A model generated the notes under the pieces. That model made no database searches. It was not told the DNA's origin and was given only the letters and a program-made list of their open reading frames with translations. From Octopus sinensis (Eukaryota), in assembly GCF_006345805.1 (NCBI RefSeq), contig NC_043000.1, forward strand, positions 67,394,001 through 67,458,000: a stretch of 64,000 nucleotides of DNA. Reading direction: 5' to 3'. The stretch's first letter is position 1; each line of letters begins with the position of its first letter. The position numbers and the translations under genes are program-made. Positions 5,740 to 62,997 of this stretch are shown here, piece after piece.

Positions 5740-8000
5740 ATTTATATCAATTGGAGTTAATTTTGTCGTGTCTTTTCTTACTTTGCCTTCAAGTAAAACT
5801 TGAAAAAGTTGATGAGTACTTGCTGGAAGTTGTAAGTATGTATCTCGGTTCTTTCAGTTTAGCCCACCACACAATTTCTTTTGCCATTTCTACGAGACAA
5901 GAAAATGGCTTACGTTTCCTAGTTAAAGGAAGGCGGTGAGAGAAATCTTTACAATGGACTCGGCTGATAGTCAAATCCATAGCTTTCATGACGAGAATTT
6001 CTTCGAAGACGTCATCTTCCACCCAACTAGTACTCTATAGAACGCCAACGTGAAAGGTCAAGCGACTGCACTGCTTGACTTATAGAAGGCTGTGAGCACC
6101 TGACAACTTTCAGGATGCTATGCCAAGTGCCCAATCTTGGTCACTACATAACTCAAAGTTACATTTCTGGTGAGAAGCTAAGCTATGGAAAGACATGCCT
6201 GAGAAAAGATTGTCAAATCTGTTCTAATTTACTTTAATGAGTTTTCGTAGCTTCCACTTCCTCAACACATGTCTGGATATCAATAGCCATAACATACAGG
6301 ACTATCAATTTAGCTGGCGTTAACAGCACATGAACTTTCTGACTAGTGGAACGCGTCGTTTCTACAAAAAGCGAAATAACCGATGTCTCAGTTCGGTCAG
6401 ACAAGAACTAGTGCCAAATAAGATGGCCAACTGGTAACATATAACAGAGGCCCTGAAACGGTGCGCATTCTCTACTGATGACTCCTGCTACCTACTGGCA
6501 TCTGGTATGCGAATTTTTCGAATAACTGCGTTTACACAAGCAAGCTGTTTCCAAGTCTCGGTTCTCCATCTGTCATGGATCGCCTTTTCTCAGTCTATTT
6601 CTGTTTGAGACTAGTCACCCTGCTTGCAAACTCCTCTCAGTCAAATCATCTGTTTAGTGCGTTACGACTCCGTCCGATGACATGGACTGCCTTTCCATGG
6701 TGCTGAGCTGCAAGATCACTGACTTTTAAGGTTAGTCTTTCTCCCCATCACCTTGCTTTTCGTTGTATCCGACACTATTACAGTGACGTTGTTTGCACAT
6801 AGTGATACGGCTCTCCCGCTCACCAGTCAGAGCTGGATGCTTCACAAACCCTTCAGTTTCTACAATAGTGGCTCGAAAACTAATGCGCTCAGAATAAGTG
6901 AGAGAGAACACTTCTGACGTACTGAATGCTGGATTCGAAACAGTTTCAGTAAGTGAGCATTTACCCTGATCAGTAAGCGAATGTCGCTGTGCATTGCAAC
7001 CATCCAGTCTCTTTAAACAGGCTGAAACCGGCTGTCTTGAGGACAGTCATCAAGTATCTGACCTTACCAGAAATTTTCGATTGATCAAAGGGCCCTATCA
7101 AAGCTAGCTTTACTATCTATCTTTTCTTTGATGTATGAAATAAATTGCGCATGTCTGTGCTTTCCCGGCAACACTCTTTACCACAAGAAGCAACCACTTT
7201 GGCCAAAATTTTGAAGACCGCTTTCATCAAAGTTAAGTTACAACCACTTAATACGGTCATTATTTCAGTTATTGTTATCATCCTTCCGAAACACTCCGCA
7301 TTTTCCGCCGAGGTAGGCACAAATGTCCACTACCGTCTCCTTCCCACTTACTCGCTCCGAAGAGTCGAGGGAATCGCCGCTATAAAACCGCACACAGCTG
7401 TTTGGAATCGAATGGCACCCGTTCGTCCCAGACCGTCAAACACCGAATTGCAAATTTGTCACACTTCTGATCCCTCGAACGTCTTTCTTTCCTTCCTTTC
7501 CTAGTGCACGTGCCTTAGTTATAACAATGTAATATTCATGTTTCAGGTTGAAGAAATGAGTGAAGGCCAAACTTTCAGCAAGCACGTTGGTCGCAACGTC
7601 TTTCCTAATCATTTCTAATTTACTCACAAACTTACCCTTTGAATATTTCGCTCTACTGCTACTACCTAGCTAAAACTTAAAGAACCTTTTCAACTTGCCT
7701 TCTTTAAAGAACAGTAGCACAGGTTGTTGACGATTGTCTCCACCGTCTGACGTTTAATTAAAAAGTTAATCTGCATACGCTGAGCGTCTGGAAAGATGCG
7801 TGTAGGTACTAGTTGTCAATCTACTTTCCATTGAACCTCAGAGTTTTCTGCATTAGGTGACCTTTAACTTTCCTTTGTCTGTTTTCCCTTGTTCATAAAC
7901 AAAGAAGAGTGATGTTTCTGCACGTATATGTGTTCGTGTCGTAATTTGTTGTGGAGTGGAGGGGGTGAGTAAATTAGGAAATTTACTTTTTGGTGGGTGA
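5740..8000 (-). mobile_element. Heavily decayed Tx1/L1-like LINE ORF2
   Basis: LTLMKAVFKILAKVVA resembles the RT motif ITLLN.D.KILAK; the C-terminal FSCLVEMAKEIVWWAKLK is homologous to FLCLVAVAKEVVWWTRLK at 35300-35581; many stops and frameshifts. Confidence 0.6.
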
Positions 8001-9419: not shown

Positions 9420-9825
9420 TTAAAATTTTGACACAAGGTCAGCAATTTCGAGGGAACTGCTAAGTCGATTACGGGATTTGAACTCAGAATGGTAAGACGG
9501 TCGAAATGCCGCTAAGCATTTTGCCCGGCGTGCCAACGATTCTGCCACCTCACCGCCTTTTATAATAAGAGTAACAATAGTAATAATAATAGTTTTAAAT
9601 TTTGCCACAAGGGCAGCCATTTTGGTGTGGGGAATGTGTCAATTAAATCGAACCCATTGTTCCACTGGTACTTAATTTTTATCGACCCCAAAAGTATGAA
9701 AGGCAAAGTCGACCTCAGCGGAATTTGAACTCAGACCGTAGTGACGGGCGAAATACTGCTAAGTATTTTGTCTAGCATGCCGACGATTCTGCCACCTCAC
9801 CGCCTTAATAATAATAATAATAATG

Positions 9826-9861
<36 letters not shown>

Positions 9862-10290
9862 TAATAATAATAATAAATAATAATAATAATAATAATAACA
9901 GCAGCAACAACAACAACGATAATAATAATCCTTTCTACTAAAAGCACAAAGCCTGAAATTTTGGGGGAGGGGACTAGTCGTTTATCGACCCTAGTGTTTC
10001 ACTGGTACTTAATTAATTGACCCCGAAAAGATGAAAGGCAAAGTCGACCTCGGCGGAATAATAATAATCATAATGTTTCAAATTTTTGGCACAGGGCTAG
10101 TAAGTTTATGGGAATGGATTTTAGTCGATCACATCAACCTCAGTACCTAACTGGCTCTTTATTTTAGCAAAGCCGAAAGGATGAAAGGCAAAGTTGATCT
10201 ACGTGCAATTTGAACTCAGAGTGAAGAGTAGGAAGAAATACCTCTAAGCATTTTTGTCCGACGCTCAAAGAGTTGTATAGGGACATTGGC
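9420..10290 (-). mobile_element. Four head-to-tail family A SINEs separated by (AAT)n
   Basis: Repeated AAATTTTG.CACAAGG, GAAAGGCAAAGTCGACCTC and TTTGAACTCAGA units starting near 9420, 9595, 9930 and 10075. Confidence 0.85.
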
Positions 10291-33110: not shown

Positions 33111-33914
33111 GATCTGAAAATAAACAAAAATTAACTAAAATTAACTAGAAAAAAAAAACAAAATTGATTCCAAAATGATTCAAAAATAGAATTCTCGAAA
33201 AAAATAGATTCCAAAATTTAAAAACGCAATAAATTCCAAAACTTAAAAAAAAACAGAGGGAACTTAGTTGCCAACTCAATACATTACACAATGTGTAAGA
33301 TATGATGGGGGAAGGGGAAGATTTAGTTACTATTTCTAGCCGATCAAAATGACCACATAGACGCTCCTGAAACTGCATATCATAATCTATTAATAGTTGT
33401 GTTGATTCAAACTGTCTATCATAATCTAATAATAGCTGTGTTGTGAGGTATCAAAAATAGACATGGCTCTAGTTACAATAGGCTTACATACCGTTATCAT
33501 GCCAGCTCCAAAATTAATCTTAAGTGTTTAGTAATAGTATACCACCTGTAATCTGAATGCTCGTACTTGTTCTGCTAATATTTATTTTACACATGAGAAC
33601 TCAGGTATGTAGGAAAGTCAGCTAGATTCAGAATCACAGTTTAGGATTTTCCATATATCTCTGAGCTGTTTCTCTTGAACCCTCATCAATTCGGAGAGTG
33701 TTTAACCACTTTTAGCCTGCGTGTCGGGCAACCTGTATATATTTTGTTTTGTTTTTTCTTTATAGTTCGGCAGTCAAAATGCTTTGTGATATTTAATTAC
33801 CTGTCTTAATGACTGAGTTGAATTCCTACCGATAATGGCTTTAGCTTCTCTCTTTTCAGTAGTACTAATCAAGAACTGAGGACGGTATAGCTGATTATGC
33901 CTCTTTGCCACAGT

Positions 33915-34100
33915 ACGCCGGACAAAATGCTTAGCGGCATTTTGTCCGTCTGCACCGTCTGAGTTCAAATTCCGCCGATGTCTGTTTTGCCTTTCATCAT
34001 TTCGGGGTCGATAAAATAAGTACCAGTTGAACACTGGGATCGATGTAATCGATTCATCCCCTCCCCCCAAATTGCTGCCCATGTGGCAAAATTTGAAACC
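33915..34100 (+). mobile_element. SINE family A ending in an (ATC)/(ATT) tail
   Basis: GAGTTCAAATTCCGCCGA..GCCTTTCATCATTTCGGGGTCGATAAAATAAGTACCAG..AAATTTGAAACC(ATC)n. Confidence 0.85.
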
Positions 34101-34134
34101 ATCATCATCATCATCATCATCATCATCATTATTA

Positions 34135-34480
34135 TGATTATTTTTATTTGATGCAAACTCACGGCTTATTTTCTTGGGTATGATGGAAAGTGTTAGCTGT
34201 CCACGGCCAGCAGACTAAGGTAACACTTGTTTACTACTCATGCTTCAAGAACCCCGCGAAGACTTCTTGCAGTTCCAAGCAATGCTGATTTTTGTAGGTG
34301 TCCTACCTTTGCATTTGTACCAATCCTTTTGAGGCATAATGGTAGTTGAGTGATGATACTTCCTGGTGCGCCATTTCCTGTTGGTACCACGTCAACTCTC
34401 TTCATTGACCGCAAACTTCGTATTTCTCACTTGAAATTGTCATAGTTGTTCAGTCTTTTTCCTCTTCAAATCGTCATATT
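34135..34480 (-). mobile_element. R4/Dong-like 3' fragment
   Basis: EIRSLRSMKRVDVVP..GAPGSI...HLQKSALLGTARSLRGVLEA*, then a short 3' UTR running into AAT/GAT repeats. Confidence 0.8.
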
Positions 34481-34544
34481 ATTATTATTCGTTATATTGT
34501 TGTTGTTGTTGTTGTTGTTATTGTTGTTGTTATTATTATTATTA

Positions 34545-34575
<31 letters not shown>

Positions 34576-34597
34576 ATTATTATTATTATTATTATTA

Positions 34598-34655
<58 letters not shown>

Positions 34656-34656
<1 letters not shown>

Positions 34657-35207
34657 GAGTGCGTGAGAGAGCAGTGCATGCCATCAAAGTGACACTGGGG
34701 CAAAATATACGAAGCCCAGTATACCCATCATGACTACCCGTCTGATAAGGGTACACTAGGCACATGCATCACAACCATATGTGCGCGACATGGTGATCTC
34801 ATATCAAGATAAACAGCACATGACCTTGCAGGTGGGGCCCAGTTAGAATTTTCTTCTGGTCGATTAACCCATCCCACTCAAAAGGTCCCTGAATAAGAGT
34901 TGTTTAAGGTTGTTGAACGAAACACCAATGTTTCCAGAGGTGAAACCCCAAAGAATCCCTCTCAACACATGGCTATGATGCTCCCCAACTACTTCTGCTC
35001 ATGATCAGAGATGCACATATCGTCAGCCACTAAGGGACATGCTCAACTGGTTATGGTCAAACAACTGACAAGCAAATCTGTGGTATTGAGCAGAATATTT
35101 GCTGTAGCCCGTCTTTTATACCAAGACAAAACAATGTACATGATAACACTTCCAATCAGTTAAGATCAGCAGCCACGAGAGCCACTGCCTGGTACTGTAT
35201 CAGGGCA
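34656..35207 (-). mobile_element. Non-coding retroposed element, family D, copy 1 (longest)
   Basis: Closely similar to 35924-36415 and 62572-62919; all share the end ..GCATGCACTGCTCTCTCA(..)CTCA-(AAT)n or a close variant. Confidence 0.75.
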
Positions 35208-35848
35208 TTTTCCAGTGCCCGAGTATTGCTGAACTATGGGTTTCTGTCGAACAGCTACTGTCACGTATAGGACGGACACGGCTATCAGCTGAATCCATAG
35301 TGAAGACTGCCCCGCCGACCTCCTTTAACAAGGAGTGCAAGGCCGTTTTCCTGTGCCTAGTGGCTGTGGCGAAAGAGGTTGTATGGTGGACCCGTTTGAA
35401 AGGGCTAAAGTCAGACACTTTCCTCTTTGGTCAAGGCCACATCAACTTTTTCAAGTTTCACTTGAAAAGTAAGATGAGGTTAGAGAGGAGAGTGCTGTCT
35501 GATAGCAAGTTTTCTGAAAGGTGGGTGAATTGTGCAAGAATGGCCAGTATAAATGAACCAATTCTGAGGTTTCACCTGTAATTGAAAAAGGTATTATAAA
35601 AGGAGAAAGGGAATCTCTACCCCACTTTTGACCAGGCTCCCGTTGGCTTTTATGGGTTTTTCCACCAGGAACTTTTCGTAACGCCTCCCCCTATTGGGAG
35701 TTTTTCGTTGTTATATTATTTGATTGTTAAACTGTTTTTACACGATTTTTTCACAAACGGACAAAACCCTTTGTAACCTTTCGTCTTGTTTTGTCCCTTT
35801 ATGTTTTCTAATCATGTGTGTTAGCCCTTGTGGCCAATAAAAAGAATC
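35208..35848 (+). mobile_element. 5'-truncated Tx1/L1-like LINE 3' end
   Basis: CLVAVAKEVVWWTRLKG...FFKFHLKSKMRLERRVLSDSKFSERW C-terminus, T-rich 3' UTR, AATAAA at the end. Confidence 0.7.
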
Positions 35849-35923
<75 letters not shown>

Positions 35924-36415
35924 TGAGTGAGACAGCAGCGCATCCCATCAAAGTGACACTGGGGTACAAATATACGAAGATCAATATACCCGTCATGACT
36001 ACCAGTGTGATGAGGGTACATTTGGCACATGCATCACAAGCATATGTGCACAACATGGTGATCTCATATCAACATAAACAACGCATGACCTTGCAGGTGA
36101 GAGTCCAGTTAGAATTTTCTTCAGGTAAAGTAGACTATCCTGCTCAAAATCTCCCTGATAAGGTTTGTTTAAGGATCAACAAAACACCCATGTTTCCAGA
36201 GGTGAATTATTCAAACCCCAAAGAATTCCTCTCAACACATGGTTATACTGCTCCCCCATTACTTCTGCTCGTGATCAGAGGTGCATATATTGTCAGCCAC
36301 TAAGAGACATGCGAAATTGATTAAGGTCAAACAACCGACATGCACATCTGTGATATTGAGCAGAATACTCGCTGCAGCCTATCTTTTGTACCAAGACAAA
36401 ACAATGTACATAACA
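35924..36415 (-). mobile_element. Family D element, copy 2
   Basis: Aligns with 34656-35150; flanked by (TTA)n and (ATC/ATT)n. Confidence 0.75.
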
Positions 36416-36417
36416 TT

Positions 36418-36518
<101 letters not shown>

Positions 36519-36585
36519 CATTATTATTATTATTTTTATTATCATTATTATTATTATTATTATCATTATTATTATTATTTCTTTA

Positions 36586-36624
<39 letters not shown>

Positions 36625-36712
36625 TATTATTATTATTATTATTACTATTATTATTATTATTATTATTATATTATTATTATTATTATTATTATTATCATCA
36701 TCATTATTATTA

Positions 36713-36771
<59 letters not shown>

Positions 36772-36776
<5 letters not shown>

Positions 36777-37673
36777 TAGTTTTATTTTTATAGCGTGCTT
36801 TCACTTCACTACCGAGCGCAGCTCTGTGTGCCTTGGGTATGTGCTGTGATTTGTTGTGATGCTCTGATGGTTATTGTATGGAAAGTGTTCTGCGTAGGAT
36901 GTGTGCAGTGCCTAGTAGTGCAATTTTCTGTATGTTATATGTGTTTGTAAGTCCTGGTGTTTTTGTTATGTATTTGTCTGAGTATTTTTTTATCATGCCT
37001 AATGCACCTACTATGATAGGAATTGTTTCTGTTTTTAGATTCCACATTCTGGTTACCTCTATTTCCAGGCCTTTGTATTTTGAAAGTTTCTCCATTTCTT
37101 TTAGAGAAACGTTGTCATCTGCCGGTATTGATACATCAATTAGAAAGCATTTATTTTCTTCATGATCTCTGACAACTATATCTGGTCTGTTGGCTTAATT
37201 TCTCTATCTGTGTGTTTCGGCATATCCCAGAGTATGGTTGCTTTCTCGTTTTCTGTGACCTTTTCTGGTGTGTGCCTATACCATCTTTTTTCTGTTGTTA
37301 TTCCATAATGTTGGCATAGCTTCCAGTGCATGTAGGTTCCAACTCTGTCATGTCTGTGAATATATTCCTTCTTAGCCAGGACTGGGCAGCCAGAGATAAT
37401 ATGATTTATTGTTTCTTGTCCATCTCCACATATTCTGCAGTTACTTGTTATATTTCTTTTCATTACATGTTTTTGGTAATTTCTGGTGGGGAGGCTTTGG
37501 TCTTGTGCTGCAATTAAAAATCCCTCTGTCTCTGCTTTGAGTCCTGAGCTTCTCAACCATTGCTGGGATTTTTCTTTGTCTATTTCTTTTGCGTTTAGTT
37601 TACTCCAATATTTACCATGAAGGGGCTTTTCTTGCCATCGTTTTATCATGGTTCGTTGCTGTTCTATTTTTAG

Positions 37674-39157: not shown

Positions 39158-39169
39158 TTAATAATAATA

Positions 39170-39352
39170 ATGGCTTCAAATTTTGACTCAAGGGAAGCAG
39201 TTTTGGAGGAGGGGATAGTCGATTACATCGACCCCAGTACTTGACTGGTACTTAATTTATCGACCCCGAAAGGATGAAAGGCGAAGTCGACCACGGCGGA
39301 ATTTGAACTCAGAGCGTAACGGCAGACGAAATACCCCAAAGCATTTTGCCGG
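39170..39352 (-). mobile_element. SINE family A
   Basis: CTGGTACTTAATTTATCGACCCCGAAAGGATGAAAGGCGAAGTCGAC..GGAATTTGAACTCAGA. Confidence 0.85.
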
Positions 39353-39367
39353 GTAATAATAATAATG

Positions 39368-39456
<89 letters not shown>

Positions 39457-39461
<5 letters not shown>

Positions 39462-40970
39462 TTTAGGGATAAATGAAGGCTCTGGTATTCAGCATGCAAG
39501 CATGAAAGAGAAGATCAGGAAGGAATGTTATAGGAGAGTTCGTGCAGTCCTGAAATCTGAACTAAATGCACGTAACAAGGTGTTAGCTATAAATTCCTTA
39601 GCAGTTCCAGTTGTTACTTATAGCTACAATGTGTTGAATTGGAATATGAGTGAAGTAAAGAATATAGATAGGAAAATACGCAAGCTGCTGAGTTGTAATA
39701 GGATGCACCACCCAAAGGCAGACGTAGATCGCCTTTACCTTCCCAGAGCCCAAGGATGTCGAGGCCTGATCCAATTTGAACTAGCTTACAAAACAACCAC
39801 AATTGGACTGGCCAAATATCTCGAAATATCGAATGACTGGATGCTAAAGCTCGTGGAAAATCACGAGAGACGAAAGAAGCTTCATTCTATCATAAAGGAA
39901 AGCAAAAAATTTGCTATTGATCTCGTGCAGGATACCCAAACTGAACAACCCGAGGGAAGTACGGCAACTATTGTTGCAAAGAAGGTGAAAATGATGGCAA
40001 CGAAAAAAGCGCACGTGCAATTGGCTGATAGGTGGGAGGAGAAACCTCTGCACGGCAAATATGTGACCCGCAGCAAACAAGCTGATGTTGACCAGAAGCA
40101 AACCCATCAGTGGCTACGGAGCTCAGGGCTAAAAGCAGAGAGCGAAGGTTTCATCCTGGCTGCTCAAGATCAAAGCCTATTAACCCGGAACTACCAGGCC
40201 AATGTGATGAAAAATGGAGCAGACCCAAAATGCCGATTCTGCAACGACATGATTGAAACAGTGGACCATCTAATCTCTGGATGTAAAGTCTTAGCACCAG
40301 TGGAGTATAAATTAAGACATGACAGAGTTGGCCAATATCTACACTGGCTAATAAGTCGGCATTACAATATCAAAACTGCCGACAAGTGGTATAATCACCA
40401 CCCTGAGGCTGTAACTGAAGGAGAAAATGTAACCATTCTGTGGGACTTTCCAGTACATACAGACCGAACCATCAAGGCCAATAAACCAGATATTGTTGTG
40501 AAAGACCAAAACAATAAAGTTTGCTTATTGATCGACATGAGCATCCCCTGTGATCATAATATCTCAGCGAAAGAGTTTGACAAGCACAGAAAATATAAAG
40601 ACCTACTCATTGAAATTGAGAAAATGTGGCATCTCAAGGCGGTTACAATACCAGTGATCGTAGGAGCACTAGGAATGATCAAGAAGGGAACCGAAAATTA
40701 TATGAGAATGATCCCTGGCTTACCATCCCTGCAAGAAGTGCAAAAGATTGTCTTAACTGGTACATCACACGTATTGAGAAGAGCATTGTCGATGTGAGAA
40801 CTATTGCTGCTCATGTATTTTAATTTAACTTAAAAAAAAAAAATTAACGAACTATTGAGTTTGGTTTAATGGCCTACCAATGTATACTATGAGTTTCTTT
40901 GCCCTAGGAGTCGGGAAGACACTCGGCAAGAAATGGAAGCAAATTTGAAAGAAGGAAAAAAAAAATGATA
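39457..40970 (+). mobile_element. 5'-truncated R4/Dong-like retrotransposon; 446 open codons from KYLG through CCHC and RLE (stop at 40797)
   Basis: KYLG, RLYLPRAQG.RGL, LHGKY, AAQDQ, CRFC..ETVDHLISGC, RHD, KPDIV, IDMSIPCD, KYKDL; (AAT)n on both flanks. Confidence 0.97.
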
Positions 40971-44249: not shown

Positions 44250-46790
44250 CATCCAACCTCGTTATTATACAATGATATATTCAAACTAATGTCCTCATCG
44301 TGGCTCTTATACTCATAACGTTTCGACCGTTGTACTCTCTCGCCTTCTTCGGGTGCTTGTCCTAATTGTAACGTTCTCAGAATTTCCAACCGACCTCTTT
44401 ATTAAATCCAAGGAAGTAAATTGTCTTATTTCACTGTACACACCAAAGACTTCTCCTATTAGTTATAATCTTGGGACGCCGCTTGTATATTCCCCTTGAA
44501 TGGGAGTATATACTGTTTGACTGACCAAAGGACTAAACTCTGGTCAAAAAATGAAAACTTGAATGTTTGAAAAATCGCAGTATGAGACATAACAGTTTTC
44601 ACCATCTACCAGTGCAAATCGTCAACATCAGTAAATGTCAGTTGATGAATACTGTTCCTTTGAAGGAACAGTGCTAAACAAAGGCCTCAACTTCGTAACA
44701 ACCATCTAGCGGGTCCCAAACTTTGATGTAAAAGGCCTAGTTGTGTCGGCTCCTTTAAACATACTCTAACACAGGGCGACAGGTTGAGATGAAGACTAAG
44801 TCAAGCACTGGAGAAAAGCAAACCTCTCGGACTGAATATCATAAAAAAGGGCAAATTGATATTCCTGCAGAGGGACACCAGTATAATTATACTGTCAGTA
44901 GACAATTTCAACGCATTAATGGCGATGGACAGGCTGAAATGCTAGTGTCGAGGGACAGATTGAAGAACTAGCAAACTTAGTGGGGAGCGATAGCTACTAC
45001 AAGTAAAAGAATAATCCAGCCTTGGTAACCGAAGGAAAGCTTTCAACTCTGATAACCGAAAGTAAGATATGATATCTCTCTTCAATCAACATTACAGTAG
45101 GTCGCTGTTTATATAATACAATCTCCCGAAAATTCATGGAAAAAACAGTAGTCAATTAAGAGGTATAGTCGGTTGTCAGGGTGCGGAATATTTTCAAATT
45201 ACTAATGGATATAATCAGCCTACTAATAGATCAGTCACTGGTCTATATACATATATATATATATAAATTCTGCCCAAGTTTGTCGGCATAATTAAAGGCA
45301 CTCCTATACATTCCAACTGCTTGTTGAGTTTGGAAGTGGCGACACTGTTCACTTAGGTTTGTGACAAATTGCTATCAGATCTTTCAATTGGAGAACGTAT
45401 CAGTAACTCAATAGACAATCTATTAGACATGTTGACATTCTGTGTTCAAACAACATACTTGTATTTAGGTACTGACATAGATAGCAAAAATATTTAGCTT
45501 TGAGATGACAAACAAATATGTATGGAAATGGCTTAAGGGTCGTTGCCGTTTAAGCTATGTTGCGGACATTTTCATACACTGGCCTTACTAGGAAGAAATG
45601 TAAGTACTGCTGAACCATGGGAACTCAATAAGACTTTCAGTTCAATTCACACAGAGTGGAGTCACATTTGCAAATCTCAAACCCAGAGCTACCAGAAAGT
45701 ACGTAAATTTTGATATCCACCACCCATATAACTGTGTACAGAATCAAAACTCATAAGTGTTTTATCAACATGAGATAATCAAACTTGGTAAGAGGATCTG
45801 CAGTTTAAACATCAGGCCAGTATCCAGAGCTGGTTTACTCTTCGGAACATCTCTTCCTAACAAAGCTTCCATCAGAAGAGACCATGACTAAGAAGTGTGT
45901 AATCCATTTCAGGAAGTTGTGACAGTGAATATAAAGGTGGGATCAGCTATTCTGCTACAAATAAAGCTAGAAGATTATTGTGAAGTTGTAAATCCACGAA
46001 GAGATATAAAAATCCACCATGGCTACTCATTTGTGGACAGAAAAATATGGTCACCAGCCTTTGTGGAACAAAGTTAAGTTAATCGATAAGGATCAACGTT
46101 GAAAGATAACACGACGAAGAATATCAGCACGTGTGCTGGACTTTGAAACCTTCTAGGCAGGCCTAACAAGTGGGTAAAAACCCATATGGGCACCTTTGAT
46201 TAACAAAGAACATAAAACCTGCAGCTACAAAATAAGTTAAACTCAAAGCTCCTTATTTCCATCACAAGATTTGTTAAGAGTAACACAGCCAGTGAGTGTG
46301 GGTTCAATCCCTGCATCAGCCAAATAATGTTATTCTGGTTTAACGCGGCGTGCTGGCAGAATAGATAAAACGCCGGGCAAAATGTTTAGTAGTATTTCCT
46401 TCGTCTTCACGGTCTGAGTTCAAATTCCGCCGAGGTCGACTTTGCCCTTCATCCTTTTGGGATCGATAAAATAAGTACCAGTTGAGCACTGAGGTCGACG
46501 TAATCGGCTTACTGCTCCCTCAAAATTACCGGCCTTATCAAAGTTTGAAACTAATGTGTTATTCGGGTTTAAGTGAATGAGCAAGCGACGCTACAAGTAG
46601 GAGAATAACTAATATGAGAATATCCCTGGCATGAATAACTGAATGGAAACAAATCTGCACCCATAGATTAATTAAAACATTCCGAGAACGGTACCTGAAG
46701 AAGGCTGAAAAGTTAAACGGTCAAAATAAGGATACTCGACTAAATGTATCAATGCATCAATCATGTGAAATATATCAGTCACATCTCAGA
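44250..46790 (+). mobile_element. Decayed Penelope/Poseidon-like element with terminal repeat remnants
   Basis: VLNKGLNFVTT, YNLPKIH and LSLEVATLFT in order; pLTR-like CTGAAGAAGGC..CGGTC at 46694 (+) and an inverted counterpart at 44311-44356. Confidence 0.7.
46344..46556 (+). mobile_element. Full-length SINE family A with 16-bp TSD
   Basis: Flanked by TGTTATTCTGGTTTAA and TGTTATTCGGGTTTAA. Confidence 0.9.
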
Positions 46791-47275
46791 AATGCAACTT
46801 CGTATTAAGGATAATCCTCTACAATTACTGCCGTGCAACTCACTCATCAAATTACCACGAATTGCTAAACCGTGAACACATTTCGAGCTGTTGTTATCAG
46901 GTGAAGTTTCAACAGAGCACCTATTAAATGATTCATACAAAAAAAAATGCAACTGGAAAACTGAAATCTCTTTCTCTTTCTTTTTCTCACTCTCACGCTG
47001 TCTCTCCTTTCTCTCTCTTTCAATTCCCCCTCCCTCTTCTCTCTCTTTCCTCTCTCTCTCTCTCCATTCCCCTCTCTTTCTTCCTCCCTCTCTCTTTCTG
47101 CTCCATTTCTTCTAGTGTATTTTAAAGTCATCTCCGCAATTAATTTTTAAGAAAATTAAGTGGGAAAGATGAATTGAATTACATAAATGAGCCAACACTT
47201 CATTGCTACTAAAATAGGAGACTACATATATTTATAGCTAAAGATAATTAGACTCTTGGTATAGCATGCTTCTTA

Positions 47276-47664
47276 AGGCAGCGAGCCTGCAGAATCGTTA
47301 GCACGCCGGGCGAAATGCGCAGCCGTATTTCGTCTGTCGTTACGTTGTGAGTTCAAATTCCGCCAAGGTCAACTTTGTCTTTCATCCTTTCGGGGTCGAT
47401 AAATGAATACCAGTTACGCACTGGGTCGATGTAATCGACTTAATACCTATGTCTGTCCTTGTTTGTCCCTTCTATGTTTAGCCCGTTGTGGGTAATAAAG
47501 AAATAGGTATTTCGTCTGCCTTCCGTTCTAAGTTCAAATTCCGCCCAGGGTGACTTTGCCCTTGATGCTTTCGAGGTCGATAAATTAAGTACTAGTTGCA
47601 TACTGAGATCGATCGACTTGCGCCCTTCCCAGAAATTTCGGGCTTTGTACTTTGAGTAGAAAAG
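47276..47664 (+). mobile_element. Dimeric family A SINE with 18-bp TSD
   Basis: Two GTTCAAATTCCGCC units; flanked by GGTATAGCATGCTTCTTA (47258-47275) and GGTATAGTATGCTTCTTA (47665-47682). Confidence 0.9.
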
Positions 47665-60315: not shown

Positions 60316-60351
60316 ATTGTTATTATTATTGTTGTTGTTATTATTATTATT

Positions 60352-62484
60352 ATTCATTATTTGTATAACGTGCTTTCATTGCACTACCGAGAGCAGCTTT
60401 GTGTGCCTTGGGTATGTGCTTTTGTTTGTTGTGACGTTCTTATTTTCACTGTATTGAAAGCGTTTTACGTAGGATATGTGCGGTGCCTAATAATGCTGTT
60501 TTCTGCATGTAATATATACTTTAAGTCCTGGTGTTTTAGTTATGCGTCTACTATGATAGGAATTGTATCTGTTTTTAGGCTCCACATTCAAATTACCTCT
60601 ATTTCCAGATCTTTGTATTTTGAAAGTTTCTCCGTTTCTTTTAGAGAAACATTGTCATCTGTTGGTATTGATACATCGTTTAGGAAGCATTTATTTTCTT
60701 GGTGATCTCTGGCAACTATATCCATATCTATTGTTCTTAACTTTTCTGTGTGTATTGGTATATCCCAGAGTATGGTTGCTTTCGCATTTTCTGTGACCTT
60801 ATCTGGCGTGTACCTATACCATCTTTTTCTGTTGTTATTCCTTAGTGTTAGCATAACTTCCAGAATACATAGGTCCCAACTCTGTCGTGTTTGAGAATAT
60901 ATTCCTTCTTAGCCAGGACTGGGCAGCCAGGGACAATATGATTTATTGTTTCTTCTCCATCTCCACATATTCTGCAGTTACTTGTATTTCTTTTCATTAC
61001 ATGTTTTTGGTAATTTCTGGTGGGAAGGCTTTGATCTTGTGCTGTAATTAAAAATCCCTCAGTCTCTGCTTTCAGTCCTGAGTTTCTCAGCCATTGTTGG
61101 GATCTTGCTTTGTCTATTTCTTTTCTGTTTAGTTTAACCCAATATTTGCCATGAAGGTGCTTTTCTTGCCATCGTTTTATCATGATAGTTGCTGTCCCAG
61201 TTTTAGTTTGGATTTCAGTTGTTTTACAGCTTTTGTTGTTTCTTCTTTTTCTTCAGAGTTGTTCGGTACTGTGGCTTCTTTTTTTGTATTTGTCAGCTTC
61301 CTTAAAGACTGAAAACAGTTTTTTGTTTCGTTCCTGTTTTGTGGCTATTTGCATTAAATTTCCTTGCATCTGAAGTAGGTATTTTTGTAGTCCTATGGTG
61401 GTTATTTTGTAATAGTCTTCTAGCTGTATAAGGCCTTAACCACCTTCTATACGTTGTATATATAGCCTTTCTATGTTACATTTTAGATGGTGCATCCTAA
61501 ATCCTGTCATTATTTTTCTTGTTTTCCTGTCTATTTTATTTCTTTTTTATTTTCTCTTTCATTTGTGTGTGTATTGTATTGTTCATTGATCCCTAAGTAT
61601 TTGTATGACTGGTTTTGGCCTAATTCTCTTTTCATTTGCTTTATCTAGTGTGATGTTGCTACTAGTTTTCCTCTTTTCAAGGCTGCTTTGGCATATGTTT
61701 CTAAGCCAAATTTCGTGTCTATTTCGTGGTAATTCCATATACTGTCTGTAGTAAAGTTTCCAGCTGTTTTCTCATTTGTAGCGTACCGTGGTAGAGCATC
61801 CATATACAAGAGATGGTTGATTGTTTTGCCATAACAGCTGTATCCACACCCAGTTCTATTTAGCATATCAGATAAAGGTGTCAGTGTCAAGCAGAAAAGG
61901 AGTGGAGAGAGCGTGTCTCCCTGGAATATTCCTCTCCTAATGGGGATGGCTTTGGTTTGTATGAGTCCTTTTATCTGGAGCTGTAACACTGTCTGCCATT
62001 TATTCATGGAATATTTATATATTTTATGATTATTGGTGCTACCTTGCTCACGGCTAGTGTTTCTAGGATCCATGTGTAGAAGATACTATCAAAAGCCTTT
62101 CGGCAATCGATTCAGGCTATACTTAGTCCAGTCTTCTTTCTACGACTGTCTTCAGTTGTGGCTTTATTGATCAGTAGCTGATCTTTACAACCGTATCAGC
62201 CCTTGCAGCATACCTTCTGCTTTTCTGGAAACAGTTTGTTTTCTTCCAGATGCCCATTGTCTGCGATATTATTCCAGTAAAGGTTTTGTAAATTGTAGGG
62301 TCTATAATTTTCGTTTCAGTGGATTTGGGAATTAGGATAGTTTTCCCTTCTGTGAGTCATTCAGGCATTGTCTCTAACTCTGCTAATATTTCATAAAATT
62401 TCCAGCCAGCTTTTTATGTGTTCTTATTAGGTATTTTGACTAGAAGTTGGGGATCTTGTCGTGCCGGGGTGTCTATTTAGTGCC

Positions 62485-62485
<1 letters not shown>
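60352..62485 (-). mobile_element. R4/Dong-like element with RT and RLE, same family as 36772-37675, frameshifted
   Basis: RGIFQGDTLSPLLF, INHLLYMD, YKYLG, CRICGDGEETINHIVPGC; shares the 3' UTR CACATACCCAAGGCACAC; (TTA)n on both sides. Confidence 0.95.
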
Positions 62486-62537
<52 letters not shown>

Positions 62538-62571
62538 TTATTATTATTATTATTAATATTATTATTATTAT

Positions 62572-62918
62572 TGAGTGAGAGAACAGTTCATGCCATCAAA
62601 GTGACACCGGGGTAAAATATACGAAGCCCAATATACCCATCATGACTACCCGTCTGATAAAGGTACACCAGGCACGTGCATCACAACCATATGTGCGCGA
62701 CATGGTGATCTCATATCAAGATAAACAGCACATGACCTTGCAGGTGGGGCCCAGTTAGAATTTTCTTCAGGTTGAGTAGCCCATCCCGCTCAAAAGGTTC
62801 CTGAATAAGGGTTGTTTAAGAATGTTGAAAGAACCACCCATGTTTCCAGAGGTGAATTATTCAAACCCTAAAGAATCCCTCTCAACACATGGCTATGATG
62901 CTCCCCCACTACTTCTGC

Positions 62919-62919
<1 letters not shown>
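62572..62919 (-). mobile_element. Family D element, copy 3 (shortest)
   Basis: Aligns with 34656-35000; (TTA)n on both sides. Confidence 0.75.

Positions 62920-62997
<78 letters not shown>

Follow-up and report, generated by a model that had tools for sequence, protein, structure and literature searches.

A 64,000-nt stretch of the Octopus sinensis genome (NCBI RefSeq assembly GCF_006345805.1, contig NC_043000.1, positions 67,394,001 to 67,458,000), hereafter the window, carries three copies of a non-coding sequence that abut (AAT)n tracts inside nests of Dong-type LINEs, raising the question of what this sequence is and which enzyme copies it. The original prediction, made from the window itself, was a non-autonomous RNA copied by target-primed reverse transcription (TPRT), mobilised by a Dong-like restriction-like endonuclease (RLE) protein and analogous to the R2/R4 SIDE elements. 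The element proved to be a discrete 555-nt non-coding repeat family whose sense strand is the minus strand of the window, where the following features were placed.

34478-34656, minus strand: (AAT)n tail/target 3' of copy 1
34657-35207, minus strand: copy 1, full-length (consensus nt 1-555), 94.3% identical to the consensus
35208-35850, plus strand: L1/Tx1-like LINE, a 3' fragment that terminates on (ATT)n and separates copy 1 from its upstream tract
35850-35924, minus strand: (AAT)n tract, tail of copy 2
35925-36411, minus strand: copy 2, 5'-truncated (consensus nt 67-555), older, 87.8% identical to the consensus
36412-36773, minus strand: (AAT/GAT)n tract that forms the tail of a Dong copy and lies upstream of copy 2
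36774-37649, minus strand: 5'-truncated Dong/R4-type LINE (RLE domain and 3' UTR) upstream of copy 2, 57-59% to the young Dong ORF by tblastn
39457-40794, plus strand: fragment of the youngest Dong family, candidate enzyme source, 98% to an intact copy
about 60350-62249 (start approximate; self-match from 60357), minus strand: decayed Dong/R4-type LINE downstream of copy 3, 44-51% by tblastn
62485-62572, minus strand: (AAT)n tail of copy 3
62573-62919, minus strand: copy 3, 5'-truncated (consensus nt 209-555), young, 97.7% identical to the consensus
62920-62996, minus strand: (AAT)n target that meets copy 3 at its truncated 5' end

As predicted, all three copies shared one fixed end, CACTC followed by (AAT)n, which is the 3' end of the element. 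The accompanying claim of three different opposite ends held for copies 2 and 3, truncated at nt 67 and 209, but not for copy 1. In a family consensus built from 30 best-hit loci, the position matching 35207 was the constant 5' start in 29/29 other loci (two of which overlap), each with AAT-type tracts on both sides. Copy 1 is therefore full-length, 35207 is the true 5' end of the family rather than a truncation, and the unit is 555 nt. The tract at 35850-35924 was likely also the original upstream target of copy 1. Neither an ORF nor RT/RLE similarity was detected in six frames of the window copies, and searches for tRNA A/B boxes by regular expression and ARAGORN were likewise empty, in agreement with the first reading of the sequence.

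To avoid length selection, loci were also picked by each end alone. With the first 80 nt as probe, 17 of 20 loci reached at least nt 534, one stopped at nt 386 and the remaining two (L154, L156) were tandem arrays of 5' pieces. With the last 70 nt, 29 loci were obtained, all of them copies of the same 555-nt unit. None of these 29, nor of a further 66 copies picked on the 3' end (below), consisted of an ORF end plus UTR; one 3'-picked copy (L271) adjoined a mid-RLE fragment. Searches of the masked loci (1.37 Mb) with relaxed blastn and with six-frame tblastn returned nothing matching. Because picks on either end return the 555-nt unit and not an RT ORF, a long 3' UTR of Dong is excluded for the bulk of copies, and the longer copies running into an RT/RLE ORF that had been envisaged as an alternative did not appear.

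Pieces of the element also occur in other arrangements. The tandem arrays of 5' pieces comprised a 139-nt unit present at least 18 times and a 123-126-nt unit with flank present 12 times (L154, L156), and the piece nt 1-240 was repeated ahead of a full copy in two loci (L187, L303). An inverted-repeat (MITE-like) family of ~490 nt (L084:4850-5350, L197-L203; 40 matches scored, 84-87%) has element nt 102-271 at its centre, likely as a captured piece; MITE/element junctions recur as loose ends in sequencing runs of other organisms.

The genome search revealed a high copy number. In the 2.72-Gb genome analysed (~30 large scaffolds plus small contigs), the exact 3' motif (22-mer) was found 13,496 times, twice as often as the exact 5' motif (6,805), with 0 matches for either reversed control. 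Evenly spaced loci totalling 590 kb held nine copies, which corresponds to ~41,000 copies genome-wide (95% range 19,000-79,000), and the element accounted for 0.68% of bases in the sampled loci. Both young and old subfamilies were present; given that identity to the consensus spans 78-99.6% and that nearest-neighbour copies reach 99.8%, the family is judged to be long-lived with recent activity. A sequencing-run index placed the element in 20 runs with six organism labels from nine studies, with no RNA run listed among them. Seven of the eight runs inspected (five labels) gave thousands of contigs that together span the element from end to end and carry label-specific variants, and one gave 19; such contigs reveal neither transcript ends nor strand.

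We then scrutinized the junctions of an unselected set, namely 66 consecutive 3'-motif matches in 60 stretches of one chromosome, taken with the 5' side ignored. Thirty-six were full-length and 30 were 5'-truncated. An AAT-type tract lay downstream in 63/66 and (AAT)3 within 25 nt upstream in 53/66, and 24 of the 30 truncated 5' ends were joined to an AAT tract, against a background of 0.5-1.3% of 24-mers. Among 135 distinct copies, counted after setting aside copies that run off the edge of a locus, the satellites L154 and L156 and the MITE loci L084 and L196-L203, an AAT-type tract adjoined 22/35 broken 5' ends vs 1/12 broken 3' ends (Fisher P=0.002); truncated Dong copies, examined as a control, were joined to such a tract in 26/28 cases. 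This asymmetry fixes the sense strand and identifies (AAT)n as the target, not only the tail. Target-site duplications are unreadable inside the (AAT)n repeat. Upstream ATT polarity occurred in 1 of 84 full-length copies, and short 5' tandem duplications in 9 of 82 (10 flagged, one false). Insertion into AAT sites is not random, unlike that of the random-site SINE once considered as an alternative. The nearest Dong coding sequence had the same polarity as the element in 34/43 cases and the opposite polarity in 9/43; in the chromosome set, the polarity was the same in 13/14 loci. The predicted common polarity with the surrounding Dong nest thus held for the adjacent Dong fragments (36877-37649 and 60543-62249), both on the minus strand, but the nest also contains the plus-strand Dong at 39457-40794 and the opposing L1/Tx1-like fragment at 35208-35850.

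That fragment, which we take to be Tx1-like, belongs to a multi-copy family (69-93% matches at other loci) with an open frame, which had no match in Pfam. Many of its relatives sit at AAT tracts with polarity opposite to Dong. The window further contains copies of one common tRNA-type SINE (33912-34111, 39159-39353, 9573-10263, 46340-46553 and 47270-47613), many flanked by ATT/AAT tracts in Tx1 polarity. Elsewhere in the genome, a 5S rRNA gene cluster was found at G000:C4:131.78-131.98 Mb (L235-L245), along with dispersed 5S copies (e.g., L234, L238) followed by a SINE-like tail.

The element carries no recognisable head. Rfam gave no match inside copies at E≤10, snRNA and other small-RNA heads included, ARAGORN detected no tRNA and the regular-expression search no A or B box in the element; a tRNA-, snRNA- or other Rfam-type head was consequently rejected. 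The element has three internal T4 runs, and T4-T5 runs are reported for other mollusc SINEs (PMC4758252). A TATA-like TATAAAAG at nt 88-95 was dismissed because transcription from it would begin within the element rather than at the 5' boundary, and a 10-nt match, seen by eye, that the element's 5' end shares with a short tRNA-like SINE at the latter's 3' end was treated as chance. Nor was a part of Dong recognised: 123 Dong 3' ends in 13 clusters showed no match to the last 150 nt (0/13 clusters, best P=0.10), and both Dong 5' UTRs compared were unrelated. Rfam and a pattern search detected no hammerhead core, there were no inverted terminal arms, and the twister pattern given in Table 1 of the accessible text of PMC8501958 was absent by eye. 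The HDV descriptor had no match at the element's 5' end, nor in three Dong-A 5' ends, so that it ran without a positive control; an HDV-like arrangement at the 3' end, with a weak 5-bp P1, was treated as chance. With neither Dong end nor ribozyme recognised, the analogy with SIDEs drawn in the original prediction was not borne out.

The sense strand folded better than shuffles (z -3.3; antisense +0.5; 40 shuffles), as did a hairpin at nt 452-505 (z -4.8, in a window chosen after the fact). An excess of pair-keeping changes (P=0.0006) vanished with a transition control (P=0.13 and 0.64), and the one line of support for structure is folding energy. The element shows the broad features of SINEs, being short, non-coding, discrete and of high copy number, with a fixed 3' end that bears a simple-repeat tail and with 5' truncation of variable extent. 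Its behaviour is that of a SINE-like retroposon without a recognised head and, as far as these comparisons reach, it would lie outside SINE1, SINE2, SINE3 and SINEU as tested and outside SIDEs as defined in the accessible text of PMC3414825.

We also scrutinized the Dong elements of the genome, which comprise at least 13 3'-end families. The youngest had at least 150 copies at 99-100% amino acid identity (150/150 scored matches) and open frames of up to 1,235 aa, and the best PDB matches of its protein, which has an RT domain, were R2 proteins. We assign the candidate partner to Dong/R4, provisionally and by resemblance rather than by a tree, from these RT/R2 matches, the AAT target and reports of Dong-R4 in octopuses (PMC13282606, PMC9115989, PMC8967140, PMC10294476); Dong is known to target TAA repeats (PMC3812793). 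A second young family, Dong-G, had 5' tandem duplications of its first ~20 nt in 8/24 full-length junctions. Two element-Dong chimeras were found, one in which element nt 1-405 continues into an old Dong family within its RT region (L121:288-680, minus strand) and the other joining nt 524-554 to a Dong 3' UTR (L080 near 6490-6620); they are compatible with template jumps and also with nested insertion.

Other features of the Dong elements were recorded. In the youngest family, the 5' UTR is 1.5 kb long and includes a tandem duplication of 450 nt. Full-length octopus Dong copies (L205-L232, L061-L070) carry variable G/A at the 5' junction and a splice-donor-like motif ~130 nt in, which suggests that their RNAs are capped Pol II transcripts rather than products of an HDV ribozyme of the silkworm Dong type. 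A second candidate Dong passenger is a very short tRNA-like SINE (L039 near 1150-1242 plus six further segments) whose end passes straight into (AAT)n, with the polarity of Dong.

Taken together, the AAT target, polarity, truncation pattern and Dong-like 5' duplications make it likely that the element is a SINE-like retroposon copied in trans by the RT/restriction-like endonuclease of the genome's Dong (R4-clade) LINEs, a reading to which we give a probability of roughly 0.75. The corresponding part of the original prediction, a non-autonomous RNA copied by TPRT and probably moved by Dong, thus stands. Since no tail or head is shared with any sampled Dong family, we infer the partner from target and junctions alone. 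The element RNA would start at A(1-3)UGCCC and end in (AAU)n; the Dong protein would bind it, nick (ATT)n and prime on (ATT)n. Because no Dong-derived tail was found, recognition would likely rest on pairing of the (AAU)n tail with the primer, perhaps with help from the 3' hairpin at nt 452-505.

Other origins were weighed against Dong mobilisation of a SINE-like RNA. The element could be a true SIDE or a stringent SINE whose 3' end, or both ends, derive from a rare, extinct or unsampled Dong family. More than 50 Dong-R4 consensus families are described for O. vulgaris (PMC13282606), compared with the 13 3'-end clusters and two 5' UTRs used here, and the age of SIDEs can reach tens of millions of years, with divergence from the parental element (PMC3414825). 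Against this, the 123 Dong 3' ends, the relaxed searches of masked loci and the 66 plus 29 3'-picked copies all failed to reveal a parental LINE, and among the best-supported loose ends listed for the eight runs there were AAT tracts at the termini and no recurrent LINE junction; we consider such an origin unlikely, though worth keeping in view. Less probable still is a highly decayed 5S-derived SINE3, whose Pol III promoter would be of type 1. By eye, nt 94-107 resemble box C, being identical to the genome's own 5S at 11/14 positions, and other short colinear blocks were found, but the alignment was no better than with shuffles (head P=0.19-0.75; 5'-anchored P=0.39), nhmmer and Rfam gave no 5S match and the box spacing is ~6 nt too long. 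Mobilisation by a Penelope-like element or, if the opposite strand is taken as sense, by an ATT-seeking Tx1-like LINE appears very improbable. The Tx1-like family does use the same repeat and adjoins copy 1, and tandem arrays of 5' pieces exist (L154, L156); yet it is the TGCCC end that shows the insertion-type truncations and duplications, and this sets the AAT polarity, opposite to that of Tx1, and a Penelope-like element is at odds with the missing hammerhead core and inverted terminal arms.

How the RNA would be made bears on a further alternative, which is compatible with Dong mobilisation and differs in RNA production. A promoterless passenger would arise by read-through from upstream Dong or host genes, its 5' boundary being set either by cleavage, at a ribozyme or nuclease site, or by annealing of the cDNA to upstream (AAT)n. 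Uncut element copies were enriched right behind Dong tails (8/30 Dong-selected loci vs nine copies in 590 kb of random DNA), Pol III boxes were not recognised, silkworm Dong self-cleaves from TAA repeats (PMC3774820) and flank-driven transcription has been proposed for SINEU (PMC4494074). Against the annealing variant, internal duplication units restarted at A(1-4)TGCCC without AAT repeats, which argues for a defined RNA end rather than annealing. At nearly all of the 67 clean junctions of full-length copies, only A stood between TGCCC and the tract (AAA 41, AA 11, A 4, AAAA 3, none 3). A G occurred among the extra bases in 2/67, compared with 22/24 Dong-G junctions (where one G may be native to the element and three loci resemble a single insertion that was duplicated); the extra A, rather than the G-rich additions of Dong, hints at an uncapped RNA. 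We infer from these junctions that the RNA has a defined and likely uncapped 5' end. Against the ribozyme variant, no HDV (by a descriptor without a positive control), hammerhead or twister pattern was recognised; a promoterless passenger is a tentative reading overall. As the simplest source of the RNA we favour RNA polymerase III acting through an unrecognised promoter, at somewhat less than even odds, although the lack of a canonical A/B box and the three internal T4 runs count against it; cleavage from a read-through co-transcript is a close rival that we hold plausible but tentative, and an internal Pol II promoter is improbable. It is possible, though doubtful, that the full scenario applies, that is, a SINE without small-RNA head or LINE tail that reached ~40,000 copies on the Dong enzyme through its (AAU)n end alone, its uncapped 5' end being made by an undescribed Pol III promoter or a self-cleaving motif.

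The partner of EhSINE1 from Entamoeba histolytica is an RLE-type LINE, and the octopus SINEs OK, OR1, OR2 and 'Twitch', which like the element are abundant short octopus retroposons, are tRNA-derived; the element differs from that description in having no recognised tRNA head, but may be identical with 'Twitch' or with a library entry. OR1 and OR2 are cited as CORE-SINEs (PMC4824008, PMC4758252). In the accessible text of PMC2996970, EhSINE1, the closest to the element in build, resembles it in its 500-600 nt of non-coding sequence with no precursor small RNA identified and only weak A/B-like boxes. It has, however, ~70 nt of its 3' end in common with EhLINE1 and uses T-rich sites broadly, whereas no shared tail was found for the element, which is microsatellite-specific. 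Drosophila R2 and R2/R1 SIDEs, as far as described in PMC3414825, are likewise non-autonomous and target-specific, with TPRT-type 5' junctions and an RLE partner; however, they are rare, and both of their parts, the 5' ribozyme and the 3' end, come from the LINE itself, whereas the element has tens of thousands of copies and neither part is recognisable. For SINEU of crocodilians (Tx1-Mar), too, the partner LINE was inferred from a shared target and the transcription route is unclear, but SINEU has a U1/U2 head and an APE-type partner, in contrast to the unrecognised head and (AAT)n target of the element (PMC4494074, accessible text). Dong itself, in Bombyx mori, Anopheles and Biomphalaria and as octopus Dong-R4, matches the element in TAA/AAT target, polarity, 5' truncation and 5' duplications (PMC3812793, PMC3774820, PMC13282606, PMC9115989). 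Unlike the element, it is autonomous, and silkworm Dong has an HDV-like ribozyme, none being recognised in the element (PMC3774820).

We found no description of a Dong-mobilised SINE in cephalopods in the literature, with Dfam, Repbase, SINEBase and the Zenodo library of PMC13282606 lying outside the comparison; a relevant description was absent from the accessible text of PMC3774820, PMC4824008, PMC4758252, PMC8501958, PMC8010984, PMC4640811 and PMC5753468. The sequence very probably sits in automated libraries among unclassified SINEs or unknown repeats, there being 893 recently active unclassified SINE families in O. vulgaris.

Known passengers of target-specific RLE LINEs are rare internal-deletion derivatives (SIDEs) or tail-sharers (EhSINE1). 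Here, ~0.7% of a 2.7-Gb genome would be the passenger of a target-specific RLE retrotransposon, and a Dong passenger would help explain the polarised AAT nests of octopus genomes. The system is testable, since the partner, with its intact young ORFs, and the passenger, with its near-identical copies, both appear recent. If the element is neither a SIDE nor tail-sharing, it would offer a direct test of whether Dong reads RNA structure or just the (AAU)n tail, and of the way in which an RNA without a head obtains a precise 5' end. If the full scenario above, with neither small-RNA head nor LINE tail, is true, target-specific LINEs of the RLE type can be relaxed towards foreign RNAs, and the element would provide a small natural template with which to direct insertions into AAT repeats.
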